Assembly: GCA_051313645.2 (NCBI GenBank)
Contig: JBNRSN020000029.1
Span: 21,514,001-21,578,000 of the forward strand
Direction of reading: 5' to 3'
Source: Centroscyllium fabricii
Taxonomy: Eukaryota
DNA length: 64,000 nucleotides
Below are positions 6,346-62,504 of this stretch, piece by piece (position 1 is the first letter of the stretch; each line of letters starts with the position of its first letter). A program made the position numbers and the translations under genes. A model generated the notes under the pieces. It saw only the letters and a program-made list of their open reading frames with translations, ran no database searches and was not told where the DNA came from.

Positions 6346-7271
6346 TATTATTGTAACATGTGGTGCTAGAGTTTAAAGGTGACATTGGATCAGCTGTGCA
6401 TTAGCAACTTTTCCAGATATTCATCGCTATTGACGACAATGGAAGGAATACCGAGAAACATGGGAGGATGTAATTACTACATGACAAGATTGCACGGAGT
6501 GTTTCCATTACAAATGTAGTCATCAACGTTTATATCAGAACTAGAGAAGGAAGAACACAATGCAGGTCTTTGCATTCGGATTCAATTATATCTTTATGCC
6601 CTGAAAAAATAATCCCTCTCCTCGAAACCGAATACATCTGAAGTACAACTGTGGTATAAAAAATCATCTTTCTCTTTATGGCAAGAGGGATGGTGCCATT
6701 TATGCCAACATTTTAATGCCCCAACAGATAGACAGTTCCACTGACTGAAATAGAAATGAATGAAGGGCAGAAGGTAAACGAGGCCCACTGTGCAATCACA
6801 CGCATATTGCTCTAAGAACATAGTCCAATTTCTATCCATATATTTTGTCTCTCTGGATGTGAAAATGGACATGGGCAGAAAAACAAAACATGCAGAATCG
6901 CATTTGTAGCCCGGTGTCTAACCCTCCCAAGGAACTGGATGCCAGGCGACCGATGTGCTAGCACCTGTTTTGCGGCCTCGCCGCTCTCCAATTCCACCCG
7001 ATGTGCAGTGCCGTGGGAGACAAACAACTCTCTCCTTCAGATTTTATCAATCGATATCCTTGGACTTTTCACACGAAGATTTATGGCAGCTGGTTGTGCA
7101 GTGATTAACAGAAAAGTTCAAAGTATTGAAGATTTTGGATGAGATAAATCAGGGGAAATATATTTGCACTTGTTGGCCAGCGGATTCTTAAAGGGCCAAA
7201 ATGTATTATCATCATCAAAGGAATGAAGTGAGAGGTCTAGAGATTATTTGTATTTTGCGAATCAGTGTAAT

Positions 7272-7858
7272 TGTCATAGATGGAATTCTCCTTTAAGGAT
7301 TACATCTTTGAATTATATGTCTGTTTCTCTGTTTTGTTCATTATTACCTCGTTTTCTTGTAAATATAGCTAATTGTAGCTCGTTTATCATTTGCATGTAT
7401 TGATAGGAATGAGCTAATCAATCTAATTGGCTTGAGCCATATATAAGCTTTGGGTTGGCAACAGGATATTGCCGGATCGTTAGTTTCTGTTACTTGATAT
7501 CTGTGTTCGGTTGCTACTCTCTGTTCCTGTTCGTATTGGATTTCTACCTGTTACAGAAGAGTTGGATTTACTGCTGAACTCAGTGCTGGGATTCATCCCT
7601 TCAGTGAAGCGGATTACTTGGAGTAGATCGGTTTCTAGTTTTGGACTTATTTCTGTTTATCACCATGAACTCTGGTTTGGACTTGTTAATTACATTTACC
7701 AGTACTCTGGATTATAGAATTGTTTATTCTCTGTTGAACACTGCAGTTAATAACTGTATATATATATATATATTTGAGGACTCAGAAATAAAGGATAATT
7801 TATTTCTAAAGACGGACTTCCGGTGTTCTGCATTTGGGCCCTACCACAAACCCTTACA
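7272..7858 (+). repeat. 5' LTR (587 bp)
   Basis: TGTCATAGAT...CCCTTACA. By my count it differs from the 3' LTR by 7 substitutions and 1 indel. Contains TATATAA (7440-7446) and AATAAA (~7789). Confidence 0.95.
7440..7481 (+). promoter_or_regulatory. LTR TATA box and predicted transcript 5' end / self-primer (GCCGGATCGTT, 7471-7481)
   Basis: TATATAA at 7440; 31 nt downstream begins an 11-mer exactly complementary to the PBS-position sequence at 7860-7870. Confidence 0.75.
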
Positions 7859-7859
7859 G

Positions 7860-7870
7860 AACGATCCGGC
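7860..7870 (+). promoter_or_regulatory. Self-priming-type primer binding site AACGATCCGGC
   Basis: Lies 1 nt after the 5' LTR, does not start with TGG (no tRNA CCA complement), and is the perfect reverse complement of 7471-7481. Confidence 0.75.
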
Positions 7871-7875
7871 CAGAA

Positions 7876-9522
7876 ATGGACCCAGCAGAGACACTGAAGC
7901 GTCTAGAACACCTCGAGGGCGCCCTATTTCACCAGGGGCAGACCTTGATGAATATTTGCACTCAGATGGAGCAGTTAACCGTCGCCTGGAACCTGCGGGT
8001 AGCGTCGGATTCGGCAGGGGTCCCGTTACCACCACCCCCGGCTCCAGAAGGGGGGCTGGTACCCAGGCCTCAACTACTAGCTCCCACACTCGAAACCCGA
8101 GTCGGGGAACCGGAACGGTATGCCGGTGAACCCGAGCAGTGTGATCCTTTTCTCACAAGCTGTTCCATACTGTTTTCTTTGCAGCCCCACACCTTTGCCA
8201 ATGGGAAGGCAAAGGTAGCGTTTGTAATAAATCACCTCACAGGAAGAGCCCGGCTTTGGGGAACCGCCGAGTGGGAGAGAGATACTCAGGCTTGCTCTTC
8301 TTTCGAGGCGTTCGCCACCGAATTAAGAAGGGTGTTTGGCAGGGTTAATTTCGGCTCTGAAGCAGCTCGGGGACTCATGAATCTGAGCCAGGGAAATCAG
8401 ACAGTGGCTGATTACGCAATTGATTTTCGAATCAGGGCTCGTCGGAGTGATTGGAATCCGGCTGCATTACGTGAGGTTTTTCTTCATGGTCTTTCTGAAT
8501 ATATCAAGGATGAACTGGTCTCCTACGATCTTCCCTCCACCTTGGATGAACTAATTTATCTTGCCACCAGGATCGATCTTCGTATCCAGGCGCGTCGACG
8601 TGAGAGACGACCGGGAACGTCTGGTCGACATCCTCCGAGTTGGACTCCAGAGGCTTTCATGACACCCAGAGAGACTGCGATAGCAGGGTCAGAGCCAGTG
8701 GGCCCCGAACCAATGCAATGGGGTCGCACTCAAGGGAGATTCGTGGCGCCCAGAGATACTGTGACAGCAGGGGCGGAACCAGGGGGTCCAGAGCCTATGC
8801 AGTTGGGTCGCACCAGTCTTCGGTTGGCGAGGCATAAGGGACCGCACTCACCAGTCAATGGAGTCGTAATGGTGAGCCAAACTCCTGATGGACTCTCTCC
8901 CAATCCACGACCCTTGTGTCAAGCCAAACTTCTTCTCCCCAGGGGATCCCAGACTCTCGTCATCTGTATTGACTCTGGAGCGGACATCAATATCATCGAT
9001 GAGGATCTGGTCACGCAACTGGAGATTGACCGGGAGCCACTGCCACAGCCGGTTCCTGTCAACGTCTTAGACGGCCATCTCCTTGGAACGGTGACACATC
9101 AGACCTCACCTGTTCTGATGCTTCTGTCTGGGGATCATCAGGAGAGCATTCAGTTCCATATCTTGAGATCACCTCAGATTCCGTTAATTCTGGGACACAC
9201 TTGGCTTCGCCGCCACAACCCTCACATTGATTGGAACACGGGAGCTATTTCGGGCTGGAGCCTCTCCTGTCACCAGGTCTGTCTGAAACGGGCTCAGACT
9301 TCGTTGCTTCGCTCGGCAGACCGATACCCGCCTGCTGCCAACCGTAGTCATTCTGGGTCTCCTGAAAATCATGTTGGGCAGAAGGGGTGGCTTCCACCTC
9401 CTCGTCAGTTCAACGGTGGGTTGGTCTACACTGTTCGTCGCCTACTTCGTTCCCGTCATAATTGGATAGGACTTCAGTACCTGGTGGACTGGGAGGGGTA
9501 TGGTCCAGAGGAGAGGTCCTGA
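7876..9522 (+). CDS. Gag-aspartic protease-(partial) chromodomain fusion polyprotein, 548 aa from ATG 7876; the frame continues past the TGA to 9837
   Basis: Gag motifs [18 protein letters not shown] and [15 protein letters not shown], then PEPMQ(W/L)GRT twice. Protease [11 protein letters not shown]...PLILGHTWL. Chromodomain YTVRRLL...[31 protein letters not shown], with TGA at the conserved Trp. The acidic tail ORF 9628-9837 is in the same frame. Confidence 0.85.
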
Positions 9523-9835
9523 GTTCCTGCTCACTACATAAAGGATCTGCAACTCATTGACGACTTTCACTGGAGCCATCCCGACCAGCCAAGTAAGAGG
9601 ACTGCGACTCATGAGGAGTCTGGGCAAGTGATCGGTTCCATACAGATCCAGGAGAGCCTGACCGAGGAGGAGGAATCTGCTGAGGAGGAGGAATCTGCTG
9701 ATGAGGATGATTCTTTTCAGTCTGATTATGAGATGGACATAGAGGAGGGCTTCGAGGACTGTTGGTTCTCCCCCGCACCCCTCCACCCACCCGATCCGGC
9801 ATTTGAGGTTTTGGGACATCAGGAGTCGCCCCCTT

Positions 9836-9852
9836 GAGGGGGGGGGGGGGGG
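9836..9852 (+). promoter_or_regulatory. Polypurine tract
   Basis: GA followed by a G run, ending 3 nt before the TG of the 3' LTR at 9856. Confidence 0.85.
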
Positions 9853-9855
9853 TTC

Positions 9856-10441
9856 TGTCATAGATGGAATTCTCCTTTAAGGATTACATCTTTGAATTCT
9901 ATGTCTGTTTCTCTGTTTTGTTCATTATTACCTCGTTTTCTTGTAAATACAGCTAATTGTAGCTCGTTTATCATTTGCATTTATTGATAGGAATGAGCTA
10001 ATCAATCTAATTGGCTTGCGCCATATATAAGCTTTGGGTTGGCAACAGGATATTGCCGGATTGTTAGTTTCTGTTACTTGATATCTGTGTTCGGTTGCTA
10101 CTCCCTGTTCCTGTTCGTATTGGATTTCTACCTGTTACAGAAGAGTTGGATTTACTGCTGAACTCAGTGCTGGGATTCATCCCTTCGGTGAAGCGGATTA
10201 CTTGGAGTAGATCGGTTTCTAGTTTTGGACTTATTTCTGTTTATCACCTGAACTCTGGTTTGGACTTGTTAATTACATTTACCAGTACTCTGGATTATAG
10301 AATTGTTTATTCTCTGTTGAACACTGCAGTTAATAACTGTATATATATATATATATTTGAGGACTCAGAAATAAAGGATAATTTATTTCTAAAGACGGAC
10401 TTCCGGTGTTCTGCATTTGGGCCCTACCACAAACCCTTACA
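9856..10441 (+). repeat. 3' LTR (586 bp)
   Basis: Near-identical to 7272-7858 and followed by the TSD GTAAT. Confidence 0.95.
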
Positions 10442-13114
10442 GTAATCCCCTTCGTCTTTGAACAGTAGTAGAGTAACACTACACTGGAGTTTGATTTCTG
10501 CTTTATTCTAAAACAGACTTATGAAGCATTAAGGGAACAAGCAATAAGCAGGACCAACTTAAAAGGTTTTAGAGTAGTTGCCTCGAGTTGCAAAAAATCC
10601 TTATATGCTTGCAATTTATGGTCTAAAATTGCACTGTAATGAAAGATCTTATGCGAAAATTTTACTTGAATGAAATGATCAGCGAAGTGGCATAATCCAC
10701 CCGCTGTACTCTCTAAACACCATCTGAGCAATTTCTTCGGATTTTTAAGCTGCGGAAATGAAACTCCACAAAGTTTCGAGAACTTGAATAACTCTCTGCA
10801 AAAATTCAAATGGTGTTGTACAGCCATATACCTGAACAAATCTGAAGTGAGTGGTTTCCTCAAAAATAATGCCTCTCAAACACTGAACATACACGACAAT
10901 AGGGTCCTAAGAAAAGCTGATACACGATTTCTGTGCGTGAACCTGATTTTAACCTCATGTGTACCATTACAGGCTTGATGATGCTTTTATCAAGCAGATC
11001 CTTAGGCAAATGCAATGCTTATTTAACCCACAGCTAACATTTACATCACTCTAAATCTGTAGTGGAAGGTATGTAAAGATGACAATCTATTCCCACATTG
11101 TCCATCTCTCTGTCTTAATCGGAATGCAGCCTTTGGTTTTTGAACGGCAGGAGGCTAGATCAGGCCAATCCAGACCTCTTCAGACGTGCACAGATGCTTA
11201 GTTATATTAGAAGATGGAGTCCAGGTTGATTTGTCCCTCAGTAACCCAAGGTTGCTGCTGCGTATTATATCATCCCAACAGCTGTTCAGGTTATTTGTGA
11301 GATCCCGAGCTGTAAAAGATGACGTTCTATAAACGACACCCACTGCCTACAAATAATTGTCCTCGAAGCATTTTGAGATATTCATGTGTATCATGAAGTC
11401 ACAGAATTTGCTGATTTTTTTTCGATCTCTGTTGCGAGAAGTTTGCTTTTTTCGATGTACAACTGATTTGAGCGCTCTGTAGTGGGAATCCCTCGTGCGA
11501 TGCTGCTGTGACTTCAACAAGCTATCTCAGCAGCTAATCACTTTGCAGAGTTATCGCAGAAAGGGAAGCAGGGAAAGAGAAGCTGGTTTGATCTGGAATT
11601 TAAAAAAAAAATTTGCAAGTAGAAAAACAAAGTTTGTGATAAGGCAGGGACAAATTGTCACGGAAAAATATCAAATAATAACATGGCAGAATGCACTGCA
11701 ACCAGCGAACGAATGACCCCTGTTGTTCATTAGATTACCCGTTTTCCGATTTATGTCACGAGATTTGCATGGCAACTTGCGTTCAGTGGGACATCGAAAC
11801 AGTATAGTGCTGTCTAGTGGGCATCAGGGACTTGTGTGAACAGGGAATGTCACTGTGCACCACATTAACAAATCAGATGGAATAATTATTATTGAGCAGC
11901 GCAGAGGCTGAAGCGAATTATGCTGGGACGTGTGTTACTGTGCAGGATGATGAGGATCCAACGTGAGCTTCTGGCCGTTGGCAACAGCTGCCCAAAATGG
12001 AACGTTTCGCTCCTAGTCATTCCACCGTGAGAGGCACTGCTGTTCTTCGTGAATCCTGGGTCACGGTTGCAAATTACAGTAGTGACGCTCACGGTCAGGA
12101 AGCCAGAGTACCGGGTTCCAGGAGTCACAATGCACTGCTTACACACACCCAGGGGCGAGTAGAGTAAAATACATAAGAGCCCAGAAATTAGCCTTGGATC
12201 CTTCGTACGAGTGCGGGGCTCCCAGTTACACTTACCCTGTACTTTTGCCATTTTGAAATTTTAAGCTGCGAACTCCCGAGTTCGACAGCTGCTTTAGGCT
12301 CTGTTCGAGCTGCTGGTGCAACTGAACGGCGCAATTAATTGGAAATCTCGCACGAGACCACATGATCGGCAGGGCGCCAATCAGTGGAAGCAATCCTCCA
12401 TTCAAAACTTACACGGAGAAATCTGTGTACATTTTGAATTGGAAGAGCTTCAGAAACACATCTAAACACAAAAATAAAATGTAAATAACACCACATATTT
12501 TAACAATAGTCTAACTAACTTAAATTACCTATTTTAAAGAAAAAAAAAATATTAGAATTTTTGTTTAGAGTTTTTAACTGGCCTAAAAGAATACTTACCT
12601 ATCTTTAAAGTTAAAAAAAAATTAAAACATGCAAAAACAATACTTAAAATCTATAAAATAAAGACTTACCTGCTAAGAACGGGTGCTTACATCTGGTATT
12701 TTCAAGTGTAAAATCTTGCATACTTACCCGGATAAAAAAGTCAAAAAATAAAACGGAAGTTCACTGCGCACCTCCTGGTATGCAGGCGAGTGCGATCCTC
12801 CTCGCAGCAGCTCTCCCCCTTCCCCATGGTCCGCCTTCGGAATTGCAGGGAGCAGCTGGAAACGGCTGTTCCATGCGATTTGGAGCTCTGGTGCGCTAAC
12901 AACCGGCTCCAAAATCTCCTGCGAGGATCGGAAATATTGGCCTATTATTTACAACAGTTGTCGGAAAATGGGCAAATTGGCTCAGGGCTGGTTCAACTAA
13001 CATGGGGTCGCTATATTGCACGTTGTGGCTGTTATAAAGACGAAAAGCACACGATAGTAACTTTCACAACCTGACTCCAAAAGAGTTGAGAATCTACATA
13101 CACTTCCCACAGCA

Positions 13115-17125: not shown

Positions 17126-18462
17126 AGCGCAGACCAAGCGGAAGCCAGCCAGACCACTGGATAGGAGCTCGGGCAATCGGGCCGAAAACCGGAGGGAAAA
17201 GAAGCAAGTGAGCTTTAACCAGGCTTTTGTTAAAGCCACAGGGGGAGAAGAGGACAGCGGCAGCCGGTAAGCAGCTGCAAGTCTCGCGGGCCTTTCTTTT
17301 GAGGGGGCGGGACACAGCAGTATAAAAGGGGAGCTGAGGACTGCACTTTAAAGCGCAGACCAAGCGGAAGCCAGACAGACCACCGGAGAGGAGCTCGGGC
17401 AATCGGGCCGAAAACCGGAGGGAAAAGAAGCAAGTGAGCTTTAACTAGGCTTTTGTTAAAGCCACAGGGGGAGAAGAGGACAGCGGCAGCCGGTAAGCAG
17501 CTGCAAGTCTCGCGGGCCTTTCTTTTCAGGGGGCGGGACACAGCAGTATAAAAGGGGAGCTGAGGACTGCACTTTAAAGCGCAGACCAAGCGGAAGCCAG
17601 CCAGACCACCGGAGAGGAGCTCGGGCAATCGGGCCGTAAACCGGAGGGAAAAGAAGCAAGTGAGCTTTAACCAGGCTTTTGTTAAAGCCACAGGGGGAGA
17701 AGAGGACAGCGGCAGCCGGTAAGTAGCTGCAAGTCTCGCGGGCCTTTTTTTTCAGGGGGTGGGTCACAGCAGTATAAAAGGGGAGCTGAGGACTGCACTT
17801 TAAAGCGCAGACCAAGCGGAAGCCAGCCAGACCACCGGCGAGGAGCTCGGGCAATCGGGCCGTAAACCGGAGGGAAAAGAAGCAAGTGAGCTTTAACCAG
17901 GCTTTTGTTAAAGCCACAGGGGGAGAAGAGGAGAGCGGCAGCCGGTAAGTAGCTGCAAGTCACGCGGGCCTTTATTTTCAGGGGGCGGGACACAGCAGTA
18001 TAAAAGGGGAGCTGAGGACTGCACTTTAAAGCGCAGACCAAGCGGAAGCCAGCCAGACCACCGGAGAGGAGCTCGGGCAATTGGGCCGAAAACCGGAGGG
18101 AAAAGAAGCAAGTGAGCTTTAACCAAACTTTTGTTAAAGCCACAGGGGGAGAAGAGGACAGCGGCAGCCGGTAAGTAGCTGCAAGTCTCGCGGGCCTTTC
18201 TCTTCAGGGGGCGGGACACAGCAGTATAAAAGCGGAGCTGAGGACTGCACTTTAAAGCGCAGACCAAGCGGAAGCCAGCCAGACCACCGGAGAGGAGCTC
18301 GGGCAATCGGGCCGAAAACCGGAGGGAAAAGAAGCAAGTGAGCTTTAACCAGGCTTTTGTTAAAGCCACAGGGGGAGCAGAGGACAGTGGCAGCCGGTAA
18401 GTAGCTGCAAGTCTCGCGGGCCTTTCTTTTCAGGGGGCGGGACACAGCAGTGTAAAAGGGGA
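17126..18462 (+). repeat. Tandem array of a 226-bp monomer, ~5.9 copies
   Basis: Units start at 17126, 17352, 17578, 17804, 18030 and 18256. Each has GGGG(C/T)GGG and TATAAAAG (first TATA at 17321; last copy TGTAAAAG). Confidence 0.95.
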
Positions 18463-18852
18463 ACTGTGTGCTAAACCCGAAACACTACGTGGTAGTGTTT
18501 CCCACCCTTCCATCCTCCTCTAACCTTAGGGGGTTAGAGTGATTTTAAAAAGGTATGTTCAAATTATTTTTATTTTCAGGAGCCCAACCTAGGTGGAAAG
18601 GGTTCCAGGACAGAGAAAGCCTTCACAACAGGAGGCAAGGGACTGGTGAGTACTTTCCTCAAACTTTTCTAAAAACTACTAAAAGTAGTGGGATTCAGTA
18701 AATCTAAAAAGGAAATGAAGGGTACTTATAGATCGGTCTAAAGTAAGCTTCAGGAAGTAAAAGTTAATAAATAAGCCAAAGTAGCTTCAGGAAGTAAAAG
18801 TTAAGAAATAAGCTAAAACTAGTAAATTAAAAGGTAATATAAGGGTTAAGTC

Positions 18853-19939: not shown

Positions 19940-22741
19940 CCTGAAGGCTTTATACCTTAATGCAAGAAGCATTAGGAACAAGGTGGATGAATTAGCAGTA
20001 GAAATAGAGGTAAACAAATATGATCTAATTGGGATTACGGAAACATGGCTGTAGGATTGTCAAGGCTGGGAACTTAACATACAGGGGTATACAATATTTA
20101 GGAAGGATCGACAAAAAAGAAAGGGAGGAGGGGTAGCATTGCTGGTAAAAGAGGGGATAAATGCAATTGAAAGGAAGGATATTAACTCGGTTAATACGGA
20201 ATCTATATGGGTAGAACTAAGAAATAGCAAGGGGCAGAAAACGTTAATAGGAGTGGTATATAGGCCTCCAAATAGTAATATGGAGGTAGGGGAGGGCATC
20301 AAAAGGGAAATTAGAGAAGCGTGCAATAAGAGCTCAGCTGTCATCATAGGTGACTTTAACTTGCATATAGATTGGACTAGCCAAATTAGTAAAAATAATG
20401 AGGAGGAGGAATTCCTTGAGTGTTTAAGGGATGGTTATCTGGATCAATATGTCGAGGAACCAACTCGGGATCAGGCTATCTTGGACTGGGTACTGTGCAA
20501 TGAGAAGGGACTAATTAGTAATCTTGTTGTACGGGGACCCTTGGGTCAGAGCGATCATAACATGATCGAATTCTCACTCATAATGGAAAGCGAAGAAACT
20601 GACTCAGAGACTAAGGTCCTGAATTTAAATAAGGGGAATTATGATGCCATGAGCCGGGAATTAAGTAAGTCTGATTGGGCAGCGTTTCTGGGGGGACTGG
20701 CGGTGGATAAACAATGGCAAGCATCTAAAGACAGAATGGCAGAAATTGTTTATACCAATCTGGCATAAAAAGAAATCTAAAAAGGTGACTCAACCGTGGA
20801 TAACAGGGGAAATTAGGGACAGCATAAAATCCAAAGAAAGGGCATATAAAATAGCCAAAAAAAGCACCAGACCTGAAGATTGGGAACAGTTTAGGATACA
20901 ACAAAGGAGGGCAAATGGATTAATCAGGAGAGGAAATATAGCGTACGAAAGTAAGCTTGCGGCAAACATAAAAACTAACTCCAAAAGCTTTTACAAGTAT
21001 ATTAAGAGGAAAAGACTGGTGAAATCCAAAGTCGGTCCATTACAGTCAGATTCTGGGGAATATATAATGGGAAATAAGGAAATGGCAGACCAATTAAATG
21101 CATATTTTGGGTCTGTCTTCACAAAGGAAGACACCAAAAACCTCCCTGAGATATCGGGAACCATAGGGACAATTGCAAGGGAGGAACTGACAAAAATCAA
21201 TATCTCTAAGGATATGGTGTTGGGGAAGCTAAAGGGACTGAAGGCTGACAAATCCCCAGGGCCTGATAACATGCATCCTAGGGTACTCAAGGAGGTGGCC
21301 CTAGAGATAGCAGATGCTTTAAGGATAATTTTCCAGAATTCGATAGACTCGGGAACAGTGCCCATGGATTGGAGGTTAGCTAACGTTACCCCACTATTTA
21401 AAAAGGGGGGTAGGGAAAAAGCGGGTAATTACAGACCTGTAAGCCTTACATCGGTGGTGGGCAAAATACTAGAGTCCATCATTAAGGATGTAATAGCAGA
21501 GCACTTGGCAAATGGGGACAGGATAGGACAGAGTCAACATGGATTTACAAAAGGTAAATCGTGCTTGACGAATCTATTGGAATTCTTTGAGGAAGTAACT
21601 GGTAAAATAGATGGGGGAGAGCCAGTAGATGTGGTGTTCCTGGACTTCCAAAAAGCCTTCGATAAGGTCCCACATAAAAAGATTAGCATGTAAAATCAAG
21701 GCTCATGGGATAAGGGGAAAAGTATTGACGTGGATAGAGAACTGGCTGGCAGATAGAAAACAGAGAGTTGGAATAAACGGCTCATTTTCTGAATGGCAGG
21801 CAGTAACAAGTGGGGTACCTCAGGGATCTGTCCTGGGTCCCCAGCTGTTCACAATTTATATTAATGACCTAGATCAGGGAATCGGATGCAGCATCTCCAA
21901 ATTCGCAGACGACACTAAACTAGGAGGGGGGGTAGGCTCAGAAGAAGAGATCAGGAAGCTCCAGAGCGATTTGGACAAATTGGGGGACTGGGCAGATACA
22001 TGGCAAATGCACTATAATGTGGATAAGTGTGACGTTATCCACCTTGGGGGCAAAAACGGGAGGGCAAATTATTATTTAAATGGCAATAGATTGGGAGATG
22101 GGGAAGTACAGAGAGACCTGGGTGTTCTTGTGCACCAGTCATTGAAGGCGAGCATGCAGGTGCAACAGGCGGTCAGGAAGGCAAATGGTATGCTGGCCTT
22201 CATATCAAAAGGGTTAGAATACAGGAACAAGGACACCTTACTACAGCTGTACAGGGCACTGGTGAGACCACACCTCGAGTACTGTGTGCAGTTTTGGTCG
22301 CCTCATCTGAGGAAGGATGTTCTTGCCATGGAAGGAGTGCAGCGGCGATTCACCAGGCTGATACCAGGAATGGCAGGAATGACCTATGAGGAGAGACTAT
22401 GTAGTTTGGGGATGTACACACTGGAGTTTAGAAGATTGAGAGGGGATCTCATAGAAACTTATAAAATTCTGACAGGCCTGGACAGACTAGATGCAGAAGG
22501 AATGTTTCCGATGGCAGGAGAGTACAGAACTAGGGGACACAGTTTAAGGATAAGGGCTAAACCATTTAGGACAGAGATGAGGAGGAATTTCTTCACCCAG
22601 AGAGTGGTGAACCTGTGGAACTCACTGCCACAGAGGGCAGTGGACGCCAGCTCATTAAATATATTTAAGAGGGAATTAGATATATTTCTGCAGGCAAAAG
22701 GGGTTAAAGGTTACGGAGAGAAGGCAGGGACGGGATACTGA
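19940..22741 (+). pseudogene. CR1 ORF2 (endonuclease plus reverse transcriptase), disrupted
   Basis: LYLNARSIRNK, GITETWL* (TAG 20052-20054), GDFN, SDHN, KSPGPD, LDFQKAFDKV, GVPQGSVLGP, KFADDTKL. Frameshifts near 20745 and 21680; ends GTGY*. Confidence 0.9.
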
Positions 22742-49700: not shown

Positions 49701-50417
49701 TTTCATGCATAGCATGTCTTTAATTGTTTTGGGAACAGACACAACATGAAGTCTTAGCTATGACATGCACATGTGACTTAGGGAAGATAGAGTGTATAAA
49801 GGAGCTCTGTTTTCAAAAGTTCAGTAGTTCTTCGGAGAGCTCGAAAGACACATTAACCGAAAAGCATCTGCCTCTGTATACAGTCAGGCCGATCACTGTG
49901 CCTTATATCAGTAAAGTCTGTTTTTGTATACTGTACCGCCAACTCTCTCTTACTAATTCGAAATGTGTTGTTGTGAACCATAGAAGGACGGAAACGGAAT
50001 GCTAACATTTACCACTAAAATGATTTGCTGCAATTAATTAGTGAGATTGGTCGCATTTCAGCGTGAAATAACATGGGCTTCTGACATGGTGCTGCTTCTA
50101 AAGAGTTAAAAGTGAACATGTGACTTAGATCAAACTTTTGTCACGGGGGTCACTGTAATTTTAGGAATGTTAATGCTTAGAAGATTGAAATTAATTCAGG
50201 TGAAGTTGTTCCTAGTCAGCCGTTGTCGCCTCTGATCATGACCAGGCTCCAAGGATTTTTCGCCAAGCTCAGGCTTCGACTGTGGCTCTCTGACATCAGT
50301 CTACTGACTCTAATTTATTGGGGCATCATCTAGGATCTTTTCGGAATCACTGGGGTGTTTGCAACATTGTGTTACATGCAGCAGATTTATTTGCTGTAAG
50401 AGATTATAATATATAAT

Positions 50418-51416
50418 CTGTTTACAATATATATTAATGATCTGGATCAGGGAATTGAATGTAATATCTTCAAATTCGCGGACGACACCAAACTAGGAGG
50501 GGGGGCAGGCTCTGAAGAGGGTGTCAGGAAGCTACAGGGCGATTTGGATAAGTTGGGGGACTGGGCAGATAGATGGCAGATGCACTATAATGTGGATAAA
50601 TGTGAGGTTATCCACTTTGGGGGCAAAAACAGGAGGGCAGATTACTACTTAAATGGCAGTAGATTGGGAGATGGGGAGGTGCAGAGAGACCTAGGTGTTC
50701 TTGTACACCAGTCGCTGAAGGCGAGCACGCAGGTGCAGCAGGCGGTTGGGAAGGCAAATGGTATGTTGGCCTTCATATCAAGAGGGTTCGAGTATCGGAA
50801 TAAGGATACATTACTGCAGCTGTACAAGGCACTGGTGAGACCACACCTCGAGTATTGTGTACAGTTCTGGTCGACTCGCCTGAGGAAGGATGTTCTTGCC
50901 ATGGAAGGAGTGCAGCGGCGTTTCACCAGGCTGATTCCTGGAATGGCAGGAATGACCTACGAGGAGAGATTGTGTAGTCTGGGCTTGTACTCGTTGGAGT
51001 TTAGAAGATTGAGAGGCGATCTCATTGAGACGTATAAAATTCTGAAAGGTCTGGACAGGCTAGATTCAGAGAGAATGTTTCCAATGACGGGGGAGTCCAG
51101 AACCAGGGGCCACAGTCTAAGGATAAGGGGTAAACCATTTAGGACAGACATGAGGAAGAATTTCTTCACTCAGAGAGTGGTGGGCCTGTGGAATTCCCTG
51201 CCACAGAGGGCGGTGGAGGCCAGTTCATTAAACATATTCAAGAGGGAATTGGATATATTTCTTCAAGCTAAAGGGATTAAAGGTTATGGAGAAAAGGCGG
51301 GGACGGGGTACTAGCTTGCTAAAGATCAGCCATGATCTCATTGAATGGCGGAGCAGGCTCGAAGGGCTGAATGGCCTACTCCTGCTCCTATCCTAACTTC
51401 TATGATTCTATGATTC
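50418..51416 (+). mobile_element. Young 5'-truncated CR1 LINE; ORF2 C-terminal frame open 50418-51314
   Basis: LFTIYINDLDQG...KFADDTKL...GEKAGTGY* without interruption, (TCTATGAT)n tail, TATAAT on both flanks; absent at the homologous site ~23845. Confidence 0.92.
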
Positions 51417-57156: not shown

Positions 57157-58313
57157 ATTATCTTTTAATGGATCAGGAAGGCCGGTTTGCACCAAGAAAG
57201 ACAGTTGGAAGCTACCCAAAAATGTGTGTGGATGCAGAGGGTTAAGCTCCACTTTTGTTTTTTTTTGCATCGAGACGGGAATTCCATTCTGTTGAAGAGA
57301 ACAGTAATGCAAATTCGATGGATTCACTGCGGCCGCCAGTCGGTAAAACTTACTTTTGGTCCGGCATACATTCGAGGTTCTTTTTCTTTTGAATTAACTG
57401 AGAATAGGTTAGCGACGAGTAATTATTAAATATGTATCTTTTCAGAATTACTAGGATATTCCACGTCATTGGGAGAAACATCGAGAGAGATCTGAGCGAA
57501 CAGAACACTTTCCAAGTATCTCACACCAAGAACTGTTGACTGATCATCCTCTCAGTGTAAGGAGAGATAGTAATTTAATTCCACTTTTTTGCAGCTAATT
57601 TTTTGGCAATCGTCATTCTCTCTGGTGGAAAGTGCGGTCTCTCCAAATGCATCACCCGCTACCTGGTGGCTATGACAGCGGCTGACCTAATGGTCCTGAT
57701 ATTTGAAGTAATTCTGCATCAGATTAACGATGCGCATTTTCCATATTCATTCCTGAATTATACTCCGATTTGCAGTCTCAATATCGCCTTGCTGTATGTT
57801 TTCATTGATTGCTCTGTCTGGCTAACTGTGGCTTTCACCTTTGATCGATTTGTTGCTATTTGTTACCAAACGTTGCGAACAAAATATTGCACCGATAAAA
57901 CGGCGGCTGTGGTGATAGCAGTCGTGTGTTTCTTAAGTTTTTTAGAAAATGTTCCAATCTACTTTGCATTTGAACCTCGGGAAATAATTAACAAAGCACC
58001 ATGGTTCTGCTATGTAAAATCAAGCTTTTACAACGTGCCCATATGGGTTGCATTTTTGTGGTTGGAAACCATTTTAACCCCATTTGCGCCATTTGCATTG
58101 ATCGTGCAGCTCAATGCCCTGATCATCAGGCACATTGTACGAGCCAATAGAATGAGGAGCGGTCTCCGAGGCAACAAAAATGTTCAGAGTCACACTGATC
58201 CAGAGATGGTGAAGTGAAGGAAATCAATCATTTTACTGCTCGCTATATCTGGCAATTTTATACTATTATAGATGGTAAATTTGATAGTTTACATATATGT
58301 GCAATTTACAGAT

Positions 58314-58598: not shown

Positions 58599-61500
58599 CT
58601 ATGTGTGCCGTTGGGGCGGTCGGATGATGCGGCTGGACCGTGTTGCTAGCTGTTGCTGGTTCTGCGTTGGAGTGTGGGCGGGTTTTGGTGCGGGAGGGCG
58701 ACCGCGTTGTGGTGGTTGTGCGGGGACCGTAGTCTCGCCCGCTGTCACGTGTGCCGGCTTGAGCCGGTCTATTGTTACTGTTTCAGTCCTTTTGCCCATT
58801 TGTAATTCAAAAGTCTTGTTTCCCGCCCGAAGCACCCTATAAGGGCCATCGTAAGGTGGCTGTAGGGGGGCTCGGTGCCCGTCTCGTTGGATGAACACCC
58901 ATTTGGCGTTTTTGATGTCGTCTGGCACCCGAGCTGCCGGCTCTCCAAGCCGGGACACTGGTAATGGCTGAAAAGCTCGTGCCGGGTTTGCCCAGTCCTT
59001 TAAATACTGGTCTGCTGACCAGGGGGTGTTGGCCTCAGCCAAAAATTCACCCGGTACCGTTAAAGCCTGGCCGTAGACGAGCTCTGCTGCTGAGGCATTG
59101 AGGTCCTCTTTAACTGCCGACCGCAGCCCGAGGAGAACCCATGGAAGGCGATCGGTCCATGAAGCATCTTTCATTGTGGCCCACAGCGATGCCTTCATTG
59201 AGCGGTGGAACCGTTCGCATAGGCCGTTCGCCTGTGGATGGTACGCGGTGGTCCTGTGTAGTGTCACCCCAAGGTCGCGGGCGATGGCCGCCCATAATGT
59301 CGACGTGAACTGGGGACCTCTGTCGGAGGTGATGTCCGTGGGCACGCCGAATCGGGCGACCCATGTGGCGATGAACGCCCTGGCCAGGTCCGTGGTGTTT
59401 GTGGCAGTAAGGGGCACTGCTTCAGGCCAGCGAGTGTTGCGGTCGACCATGGTCAGTAGGTGCGTGTGTCCGCGGGATGGTGGTAGTGGCCCAACGAGGT
59501 CGATATGGACGTGGTCAAAGAGTCTGGCCGGTACCTTAAAATTTTCCAGCGGTGCCCTAATGTGCTTGTGCACTTTGGAGCGCTGGCAGGCTATGCAGGA
59601 GGTGGCCCAGGCGCGGACGTCTTTGCGCAGGCCGCGCCATACAAACCGGGCCGATATAAGTTTAGTGGACGCGCGGACGCCGGGGTGGGACAGGTCGTGG
59701 AGGGTCGTAAAGATTCGTTCCCTCCAAGCGGGGGGCACGACGGGCCTGGGTTGCGATAACGAAATGTCGCAGCAAACGACGGTGGCAGCGGGGCCGTGCG
59801 GGATCTTGGCCAAGCGTAGGCCGGGAAGTTTGGTGGCGGCGTTGAGTAGGTCGGGGTCGGTCAGCTGCTCCGCGGCCAGCTGGGCATAATCAACTGCCAT
59901 TTGGGCGGCGTTGATAGTGGGGCGTGAAAGGCAGTCAGCGACCACGTTGTCGCGGCCGGAAATATGCTGAATGTCGGTTGTAAATTCCGACACGGCCGTG
60001 ATTTGGCGCTGCTGCCTGGCCGACCAGGGTTCAGCGGCCTTAGCCATCGCAAACGTGAGTGGCTTGTGGTCGGTGAAGACTGTAAAGTGTCGGCCCTCCA
60101 GGAGGAAACGAAAGTGTCGCACCGCCAGATGGAGAGCTAGTAGCTCCCTATCGAAGGCGCTGTATTTTACCTCTGGGGGCCGGAGTTGCCAGCTGAAAAA
60201 GGCCAGGGGTTGCCATGCGTTGCCAGTGCACTGCTCAAAAACGGCCCCGACGGCGTAGTCGGAGGCGTCGGTGGTGAGGGCTACTCTGGCGTTGGGCCTA
60301 GGGTGGGCTAGGAGGGTGGCGTTTGCCAGGGCGATTTTGGTTGCGGTAAATGCGGTGGCGGCTTCGGCCGTCCACTCGACTGAAGCCTTGTTGGACTGCC
60401 CGCGGGTGGCCTGGTATAAGGGGGCCATGAGAGCGGCTGCTCCCGGGATGAAGCGATTATAAAAATTGACCATGCCTAAAAATTCCTGCAGCCCCTTAAT
60501 AGAGTGCGGGCGGGGAAATTCCTGTACCGCCTGTGCCTTAGAGGGTAGGGGTATGGCCCCTGCTTGGGAAATACGGTGGCCGAGGAAGTCGATAGTCTCT
60601 AGGCCAAATTTACACTTGATGGGGCTAAGGATAAGGCCGTGTTCGGTGAGGCGCTGGAACAGGGTCCTGAGGTACAGGAGGTGTTCCTGAGGGGAGGAGC
60701 TGGCCACGAGGATGTCATCTAAATAAACAAAGATGAACATCAAGTCCCGTAGGACTGAGTCCATGAGGCGCTGGAAGGCCTGGGCCGCATTTTTAAGGCC
60801 GAAGGGCATCCTCATGAATTCGAAGAGCCCGAAGGGGGTAATCACGGCCGTTTTGGGAATGTCCGCCGAGTGTACGGGCACCTGGTGGTAGCCACGCACC
60901 AGGTCGATCTTAGAAAATATCGTACGCCCTGCCAATCTGGCTGAAAAATCCTGGATGTGGGGTACGGGGTACCTATCCGGGGTGGTGGCGTTGTTGAGGC
61001 GGCGATAGTCGCCGCAGGGGCGCCAACCTCCGTCGGGCTTGGGGGCTATGTGGAGCGGGGAGGACCAGGGGCTGCTGGAGTGGCGAATTATACCGAGTTG
61101 TTCCATAGTGCGGAACTCGGTGATTGCGATCTCCAGCTTGGCTGGGTCGAGCCTACAGGCGTGTGCATGGACTGGAGGACCTGTGGTAGTTATGTAGTGT
61201 TCCACCCCGTGTTTGGCCTTGCGGGCGGTGAACGTGGGGTTGGTAAGGGCGGGAAATTCCGCCAGGAGCGTGCCGTAGGCATCGCGGTCCTTGGAGCGGC
61301 ATTGGGCTGCCGCGTGGGCTAGGAGTGCGGGCCCTGTGGAACATGGGATGGTCGTCATGGTGTTTAAGTTCACCAAGCGGCGCCGAGTTACATTGACCAG
61401 TAGGCCGTTAGCGCAGAGGAAGTCTGCCCCGAGGAGGGGAGAGGTGACCTGGGCCGTTACAAACTCCCAGGTGAACGTGTGGCTTGCCAGGGTAATGGTA

Positions 61501-62426
61501 AGCTCGCGGGTGCCGTACGTTTTAATGCTAGACCCGTTGGCTGCCGCTAGTGGCGGGCCCCGGGTGCCCCGTTTGGTTTCTGCGGGGGAGGCTGGCACGA
61601 TGCTGTGCTGCGCGCCTGTGTCGCAGAGGAACCTGAGGCCTGTACCGCTGTCTGTGGCGAAGAGCAGTGCTCCTGTGTGGCCTACAGACATGGTGGAGGC
61701 TGAGTTGGGTCTGGGCTTAAAAGTGCATGGCTGTACGCAGCGGTGTGCTTTGTGCTCGAACCGCGTGTGATAGTAGCACCAGCCGGTGCTAGAGGGACGC
61801 GGTTGTCTAGGCGGGTGCGGGGCCTTAGGTTCGGGCGTAAAATTGTGCCTGGGTGGTGAATAGTTGCGCTCTACCGATGCCGAGTTAGGGGCGCACGTGG
61901 TGGAGCTGGTGCGCTGTGCTGCCATCAGCCTGTCGGCTTCCTCGCCGAGTTCATCGTCGCTACGATGGGCTAGGGCCGCCAAAGCCGGTCTGATGGCGCG
62001 GGGCAATTTGAGGAGGAAGACGGTGCGGAATAGGATGGCAGGATTGGGAGTGAGCGCCTGCATCTGACCTAGGAGGTCCGATGGGTCGGTGTCCCCGAGT
62101 TCGGGGAGGTCGAGGAGGTGGCAGTTGCGCTCAAACTGGGAAGGGGTAAACTTTTTAATTAGCGCGGCCTTAAGCGTTTCATACCTGCCTACAGAGGGCA
62201 CGCGCTGGATCGTTGACCACATCCTATCGGCGGTCGTTTGCGGCAGGGCTGTGAACACCAAGTCGTAGCGGTCGTCCCCGTTGATGCCATTTGAACGGCA
62301 GCTGGCTTCTATGCAGCTGAACCAGGCCGCTGGCCGTTGCTCCCAGAACTCGGGCAAAACAAGTCCGCGCCCGGTGCTCCGTCCAGCTCCCTGTGATCGT
62401 GGAGCTTGGTTCCTTGTGTTGGACAT
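58599..62426 (-). CDS. Gag-Pol polyprotein, 1275 aa, uninterrupted
   Basis: Gag [13 protein letters not shown] and CHCC-type motif [18 protein letters not shown]. Protease [16 protein letters not shown]...YLDD. RNase H TDASD. Integrase HDLSH...CIAC, HIDLVG, SDRG, CERFHR, and GPY module YDGPY. Confidence 0.95.
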
Positions 62427-62504
62427 ATTTTTTTTTTTTAAAGTCCTTGGCTGGGGTTCTTAAATACTGCAGCAGCTTTTTTCTTCACTGGAATTCGTTC
62501 CAGT

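Follow-up and report, generated by a model that had tools for sequence, protein, structure and literature searches.

A short LTR retrotransposon at positions 7272–10441 of the window, the 64,000-nt stretch of Centroscyllium fabricii DNA that we analyzed, belongs to a multi-copy family of deletion derivatives of a Sushi/Tf1-type element. Probably, capsid and protease are selected in this family, reverse transcriptase (RT) and integrase would come from co-packaged full-length relatives, and the chromodomain persists only as a remnant that can be lost. In a series of successive reductions the window copy occupies a middle stage, and the substitution patterns across its relatives show purifying selection on capsid and protease.

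The fusion element and its predicted self-primer

The element is 3,170 nt long, with LTRs of 587 and 586 nt that are 98.8% identical (7 mismatches in 587 and one gap), and its frame runs from an ATG at 7876 to a stop at 9835–9837, codon 549 (9520–9522) being the sole internal stop. A preliminary description, made from the letters alone, had reported this Gag-protease-integrase stub-chromodomain-acidic tail frame with one TGA, the intact LTRs, target-site duplication (TSD) and polypurine tract, and the absence of RT, RNase H and integrase core. All of this holds: the frame has 653 codons, GTAAT stands on both sides, the polypurine tract is G-rich, and Pfam finds no RT, RNase H or integrase-core family in the window frame. 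For the domains named in that description, Pfam places Retrotrans_gag (codons 116–207, 8e-11) and Ty3_capsid above cut-off, and gag-asp_proteas (codons 360–446, 3e-5) and Chromo (codons 518–565, 3e-5) just below their curated cut-offs. The capsid aligns to the PEG10 structure 7lga (1.6e-7) and the chromodomain to CDYL2; among named proteins, those of bony fish come closest. The features are as follows.

7267–7271 (no strand): left TSD, GTAAT, identical to 10442–10446
7272–7858 (+): 5′ LTR, TG...CA, with a TATA box at 7440–7446
7471–7481 (+): predicted self-primer, situated where the RNA likely begins; it is the complement of the priming site, and four primer/priming-site variants co-vary across the family
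7860–7870 (+): priming site of the Tf1/Sushi self-priming kind
7876–9837 (+): one fusion frame of 653 codons with an internal stop
8092–8604 (+): capsid domains, codons 73–243, under purifying selection (Pfam, PEG10 match, dN/dS)
8639–8806 (+): 84-nt tandem duplication of the motif preceding the zinc knuckle
8835–8836 (+): junction 1, 71 nt gone including the CCHC knuckle, gag placed in the pol frame
8911–9288 (+): aspartic protease, codons 346–471, DSG at 8971–8979, under purifying selection
9288–9289 (+): junction 2, where a pair of 6-nt direct repeats bounded the 2,361 nt now gone (RT, RNase H, integrase core)
9289–9392 (+): integrase post-core stub, drifting
9392–9393 (+): junction 3, 201 nt gone (GPY/F module)
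9383–9493 (+): segment missing in the descendant lineage (111 nt, in frame, with two of the three cage residues inside)
9421–9591 (+): group I-type chromodomain, codons 516–572, three cage aromatics, vestigial
9520–9522 (+): stop codon private to the window copy
9592–9762 (+): acidic tail, the parent integrase C-terminus with an 18-nt duplication
9834–9852 (+): polypurine tract, G-rich, overlapping the final stop and preceding the 3′ LTR
9856–10441 (+): 3′ LTR
10442–10446 (no strand): right TSD, GTAAT, read from the sequence

The number of 84-nt motif units varies between one, two and three in other copies, always in frame. The priming site, earlier listed as intact, is present; it is not a tRNA site, however, but the 11-nt complement of 7471–7481 in the 5′ LTR. 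This complement lies 31 nt after the TATA box and is paired in the predicted fold, with a whole-strand z of only −1.6. Four priming-site variants occur across the parent and short lineages, most copies carry the matching LTR primer, and the site of derived lineages differs from that of the parent at one or two co-varying positions. As the changes fall on both sides, in primer and in priming site, real pairing is supported, and the comparison of the four co-varying pairs directly supports the view that a vertebrate Sushi element primes itself. Self-priming and a cage-type chromodomain are features of the Tf1/Sushi V-clade chromoviruses (excerpt of PMC6317226). As far as that excerpt describes the clade, our parent family has the same build (self-priming, cage-type chromodomain, PEG10-like capsid), and the short element departs from it by the absence of the CCHC knuckle, RT, RNase H, integrase core and GPY/F module, all of them present in the parent.

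Family size, full-length relatives and order of losses

In the 7.2-Gb genome searched, all of the best 40 matches scored cover the whole interior at 91–100%; the 30 fetched from these, a set biased towards similarity, have LTR pairs 98.5–100% identical and no frameshift before codon 597. Exact patterns detect junction 2 in at least 303 copies and the chromodomain-deleting junction in at least 180, with a small overlap that brings the combined lower bound for the short family close to 480 copies; the intact protease-RT join is found by the same means in at least 8,003 copies. The short structure, with junction 2 shared by at least 303 copies, is no single-copy decay product. The junction-2 pattern misses the chromodomain-less lineage, so that the sets of 90 copies used here understate chromodomain loss, and other diverged lineages may have been missed too.

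Sampling 90 junction-2 loci by position gave 63 with capsid, protease and chromodomain, 1 with GPY/F as well, 14 from three shared lineages in which most of gag and protease is gone, and 12 truncated in other ways. LTR pairs of the short family have a median identity of 99.4% (48 of 60 loci parsed), and 32 of these 48 display a perfect 5-bp TSD. An LTR 24-mer of the window clade has 53 matches; of 30 examined, none sits in the LTR of a full-length element, and two of them correspond to a short copy nested in a full-length one. At L111 and L112, a short-family copy is inserted within the pol region of a full-length relative. Non-coding, TRIM-like offshoots (L066, L134, L149, L172; L074, L076, L081, L135, L161; L082, L165; L084, L090, L174) have interiors down to ~365 nt. 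Shared flanks or a tandem arrangement identify L002–L004, L027–L028 and L087–L089 as segmental or tandem duplications, not separate insertions.

The internal stop was compared in 90 non-redundant near-complete copies (96 before removal of 6 duplicates). It occurs in only one of them, the window copy, with 88 open at 9520–9522 and 1 gapped. The window copy itself is truncated inside its chromodomain, and the stop responsible likely dates from the insertion or later. Stops are carried by 40 of the 90 copies, and those recurring in several copies lie mostly in CGA codons and are scattered over the tree.

A Pol query retrieved 41 full-length relatives, 30 of which were fetched. They form the autonomous partner that the preliminary description had postulated: this parent family has the same TGTCAT...TTACA LTR ends, the same priming scheme and equally young copies. 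Its Pol is 78–79% identical to P0026, a chromodomain-bearing Pol, and the LTR bodies of short and full-length elements have diverged to 67–86%. Relative to the full-length copies, the short element lacks 71 nt at 8835/8836, 2,361 nt at 9288/9289 and 201 nt at 9392/9393, and has gained the 84-nt duplication and, in the tail, the 18-nt duplication. A splicing origin of the deletions was rejected, the junction ends having no GT-AG and lying at short repeats or none.

The zinc knuckle was lost first, followed by the RT-RNase H-integrase core, GPY/F (twice) and most of the chromodomain. The knuckle-less junction is present in at least 266 full-length copies, against 2,847 for the intact-knuckle pattern, and among 30 examined none has the large deletion and 28 continue into RT. 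Knuckle loss is placed earliest because it is found in this full-length subfamily, of which L186 and L210 are sister to the short family (support 0.99). L179 has the first two losses only. GPY/F disappeared in two lineages, both times in frame, through deletions of 201 and 198 nt, whereas a perfect 6-nt repeat at the site would give 200 nt, which is neither. The short elements form one clade in the tree, with the chromodomain-less lineage at the tip of the ladder and L069 in between. Of the earlier view that three separate losses had each kept the frame, the losses themselves and the continuous frame stand, but the knuckle loss was inherited from the full-length subfamily and, as 71 nt is not divisible by three, it brings gag into the pol frame. 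In L150, the first 800 nt are nearer to full-length copies and the remainder to short ones; by these affinities it is a recombinant with a full-length copy, as co-packaging would give.

In the knuckle-less full-length subfamily (L044, L050, L181–L210), gag-pol is read as one frame, which is open to the locus end in 11 of 30 copies, and its RT gives 17/25 for shared and 72/46 for private changes (p=0.03). Three of the 30 full-length copies (L046, L048, L052) have gag and pol fused by one extra base at the gag end, with the knuckle kept.

Selection along the frame and its explanations

Between short subfamilies, net dN/dS is 0.17 (0.09–0.27) for the capsid and 0.21 (0.11–0.38) for the protease, both well below 1 as expected under purifying selection, and reaches 0.86 for the stub and 0.48 for the tail. 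The corresponding values in the parent are 0.16 for the capsid, 0.08 for the protease, 0.09 for the chromodomain, 0.15 for the stub and 0.90 for the tail; within short subfamilies, the overall value is 0.75. Lineage-shared and private changes were then compared in the 90 copies, counting only alleles missing from 30 full-length copies. The result is 27/32 shared versus 127/49 private for the capsid (p=4e-4) and 25/25 versus 84/38 for the protease (p=0.024), with no constraint seen on stub or tail. Stops represent 0 of 283 shared and 33 of 735 private changes (p=3e-5), and none is inherited along any lineage. The catalytic Asp is kept in 90/90 junction-2 copies and 20/20 chromodomain-less copies, and the frame is open to the acidic tail in every coding lineage. 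Part of the pairwise dN/dS signal could stem from recombination with helpers: of 204 subfamily-typical alleles that the nearest parent subfamily lacks, 72 also turn up among other full-length copies, the full-length sample for the recombination and shared-versus-private tests being 30 of at least 8,003 copies.

According to the explanation that we favor, the RNA of the short element would self-prime like that of the parent, and the fusion protein would be produced at Gag level and would co-assemble via its capsid into mixed particles, where the helper would supply RT and integrase. The fusion protein would also favor its own RNA, since a freely shared protein would gain no selection on the element encoding it; candidates for such a preference in a knuckle-less Gag are the basic stretch after the capsid, co-translational assembly and the acidic tail. 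The protease would be retained to release the capsid, which is now synthesized as a fusion with it. The protein would confer an advantage without being needed, as non-coding offshoots also move (the 14 of 90 position-sampled loci without most of gag and protease).

Beyond the protease, we give roughly even chances to a reading in which only translation matters: the frame would remain open to the polypurine tract since early stops would destabilize the RNA or its cis-coupling to assembly, while stub, chromodomain and tail would be filler with drifting charge. Such a reading does not conflict with what we favor for capsid and protease, and it accounts for the C-terminal part more simply. Indeed, dN/dS is near 1 for stub, chromodomain remnant and tail alike, and stops after the protease account for 0 of 84 shared against 16 of 208 private changes (p=0.008). 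The charge data are divided: with CpG changes included, the fraction that lowers charge is similar for private (50/152) and shared (23/61) changes (p=0.53), whereas without CpG it is higher for the shared ones (19/57 versus 14/96, p=0.008, post hoc). Two further observations fit poorly with pure filler: the tail-removing deletion is found in 6 exact-junction copies against 180 for the chromodomain-removing one, and in the parent itself, a much longer stretch beyond the gag stop goes untranslated.

The acidic tail is inherited and no addition, being the C-terminus of the parent integrase itself; its net charge is −20, the median in the parent being −12.5. Downstream of the protease, the net charge is −4 or −5 in the nearest parent subfamily, −7 in basal short elements, −17 or −18 in the window clade and about −22 in the chromodomain-less lineage, while that of the capsid stays near −2 throughout the series; these points lie on one ladder and are non-independent. 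Selection on charge is possible. We consider it rather doubtful that the lineage went as far as to replace its zinc knuckle by a polyanion, the tail being selected as an RNA mimic that would bind the helper's basic nucleocapsid (or RT/integrase) and so draw helper Pol into particles that form around the RNA of the short element.

The preliminary description had proposed a selected chromatin-reader module. It now appears unlikely that selection made the element a source of a chromatin-reading chromodomain separate from integrase, by which particles or insertion would be guided. The cage residues are admittedly well kept (Y518 in 88/90 copies, W539 and Y542 in 90/90), GPY/F was lost in frame both times despite the 200-nt spacing of the repeat, and net dN/dS was 0.43 (0.22–0.88) in the first 50-copy set. 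The shared-versus-private comparison, on the other hand, yields 18/7 versus 77/14 (p=0.15, or 0.78 without CpG changes), which is indistinguishable from neutral; the 16-position chromodomain core shows no avoidance of change in the 90 copies (p=1.0), and the homologue-conservation test of the domain gives no signal (p=0.22). A basic loop conserved in fish Sushi chromodomains is replaced in the short elements, and a chromodomain without attached integrase has no obvious tie to insertion. In segment 533–550, a window chosen post hoc, 0 of 18 shared and 15 of 77 private changes occur (p=0.066), and the domain was accordingly probably maintained in a folded state for some time.

As a requirement, the chromodomain is refuted by its descendants. 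A joint found in sequencing contigs and in L069 provided the pattern for the 111-nt deletion, which detects at least 180 copies; the contigs come from two runs of unrecorded kind, span junction 3 and the 111-nt joint, and have no bearing on expression. Both runs also contain a 165-nt skip across the chromodomain (joint 9359–9525). All 30 chromodomain-less copies examined have the large deletion together with the in-frame 111-nt deletion that takes two of the three cage residues, and their nearest relatives are the window's own clade. Among 20 such loci fetched whole, 19 were parsed, with LTR pairs at a median of 99.7% identity, and 11 are open for 616–619 codons. Compared with the window clade, their dN/dS is 0.32 for the capsid and 0.17 for the protease, against 1.09 for the chromodomain remnant and 1.03 for the tail. 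Since these young descendants have lost most of the domain with capsid and protease still conserved, the chromodomain is, as judged from these sequences, dispensable and a vestigial leftover.

Neutral decay, meaning chance in-frame deletions in a passively copied element, is very improbable: junction 2 and the 111-nt deletion are indeed in frame because their short repeats are, and non-coding lineages spread too, but dN/dS of 0.17–0.32 for capsid and protease on branches with 10–20% synonymous divergence, and the lack of any inherited stop, contradict it. Least probable of all is a host-favored restriction factor, with a nucleocapsid-less Gag-protease poisoning parent particles, for which Ty1 p22 and Fv1 are precedents and knuckle loss with Gag-level protease could disturb assembly, as selection is spread over many replicating branches, on which insertions are new and LTRs turn over, and is not confined to one fixed locus, and stops pile up freely after insertion (40/90 copies).

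Comparison with known elements

Plants are known to harbor non-autonomous LTR elements coding for Gag or Gag-protease, a protein that is usually taken to be available to all elements alike. In the present family a capsid without knuckle is under selection, which implies a cis benefit, and Gag choice of its own RNA becomes testable on natural variants. The whole reduction series of a vertebrate Ty3/gypsy family is visible in one genome, and selection resolved per domain indicates what a retrotransposon parasite must keep, namely capsid and protease, but neither zinc knuckle nor chromodomain.

RLG_Sabrina_SA and RLG_WHAM of wheat, as well as RLG_Quinta, are semi-autonomous Gypsy elements (excerpts of PMC9744471 and PMC11302176). 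As described in those excerpts, they have in common with the short family an intact frame for Gag-protease (or for Gag with an unknown domain), the absence of RT and integrase, and LTR ends and a priming site common with an autonomous partner. Relative to the same excerpts, the short family differs in being of vertebrate Sushi/Tf1 type, self-priming and devoid of a zinc knuckle, with integrase C-terminal remnants in frame; its parent is only 6–19% away, each reduction step is visible, and selection is seen per domain. The traits of the Sabrina_SA/WHAM type are found here as an intact multi-copy Gag-protease frame and a partner with the same LTR ends, priming and activity period. In mouse, IAP 1-delta-1 owes its in-frame gag-pol fusion to an internal deletion, is non-autonomous and needs a helper, with cis action reported (excerpts of PMC6466679 and PMC7411935). 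It resembles the short family, within those excerpts, by the non-autonomous state and the deletion-born fusion; unlike this class II ERV, the short family is Ty3/gypsy and has a whole capsid and a catalytic protease, and its cis action is deduced from selection. The short element works like Sabrina_SA, WHAM and Quinta, and probably like IAP 1-delta-1.

Plant TR-GAG elements are defined as shorter than 4 kb, with one frame, typical LTR features and Gag only, enzyme-less yet active (excerpt of PMC4350172). Measured against this excerpt, the size (3,170 nt) and the LTR features are shared, whereas the Gag-only definition fails, protease and integrase remnants being in frame. Sugar-beet families retain GAG/PROT, some with decayed RT, RH, INT or chromodomain remnants (excerpt of PMC13570524), and the remnants of the short family are comparable with those that the excerpt describes. 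Unlike a domesticated PEG10/RTL-like gene, the short family has hundreds of young LTR-bearing copies, of which the window copy contains a stop.

The literature searched, with Repbase and Dfam outside that search, contains no description of a short Gag-protease-integrase-remnant family in fish or sharks. Among 273 proteins compared, only P0003 and P0159 combine capsid, protease and chromodomain without RT and integrase core. P0003 (629 aa, one member, on one 2.3-kb contig) is composed of Gag, protease, integrase stub, partial chromodomain and acidic tail; it has the same short integrase stub as the window element but other junctions, a kept knuckle and no first cage residue, and is an independent fusion; a search for its DNA found nothing. 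The Gag-SH3-chromodomain entries of Metynnis, Menidia and Takifugu look like gene models spliced across full elements.

Elsewhere in the window, an unrelated Gypsy element on the minus strand (58599–62459) has an open Gag-Pol frame of 1,286 codons with a DUF7041 Gag and no chromodomain match, and a partial rhodopsin-family GPCR frame on the plus strand (57579–58214; 7tm_1, 2.5e-18) ends ~400 nt before it. Frameshifted remnants of LINE endonuclease-RT lie on the plus strand at 20055–22741 and 50400–51314, and upstream of the former is a 226-bp tandem repeat (17126–18466) of 5.9 copies with 96% matches.
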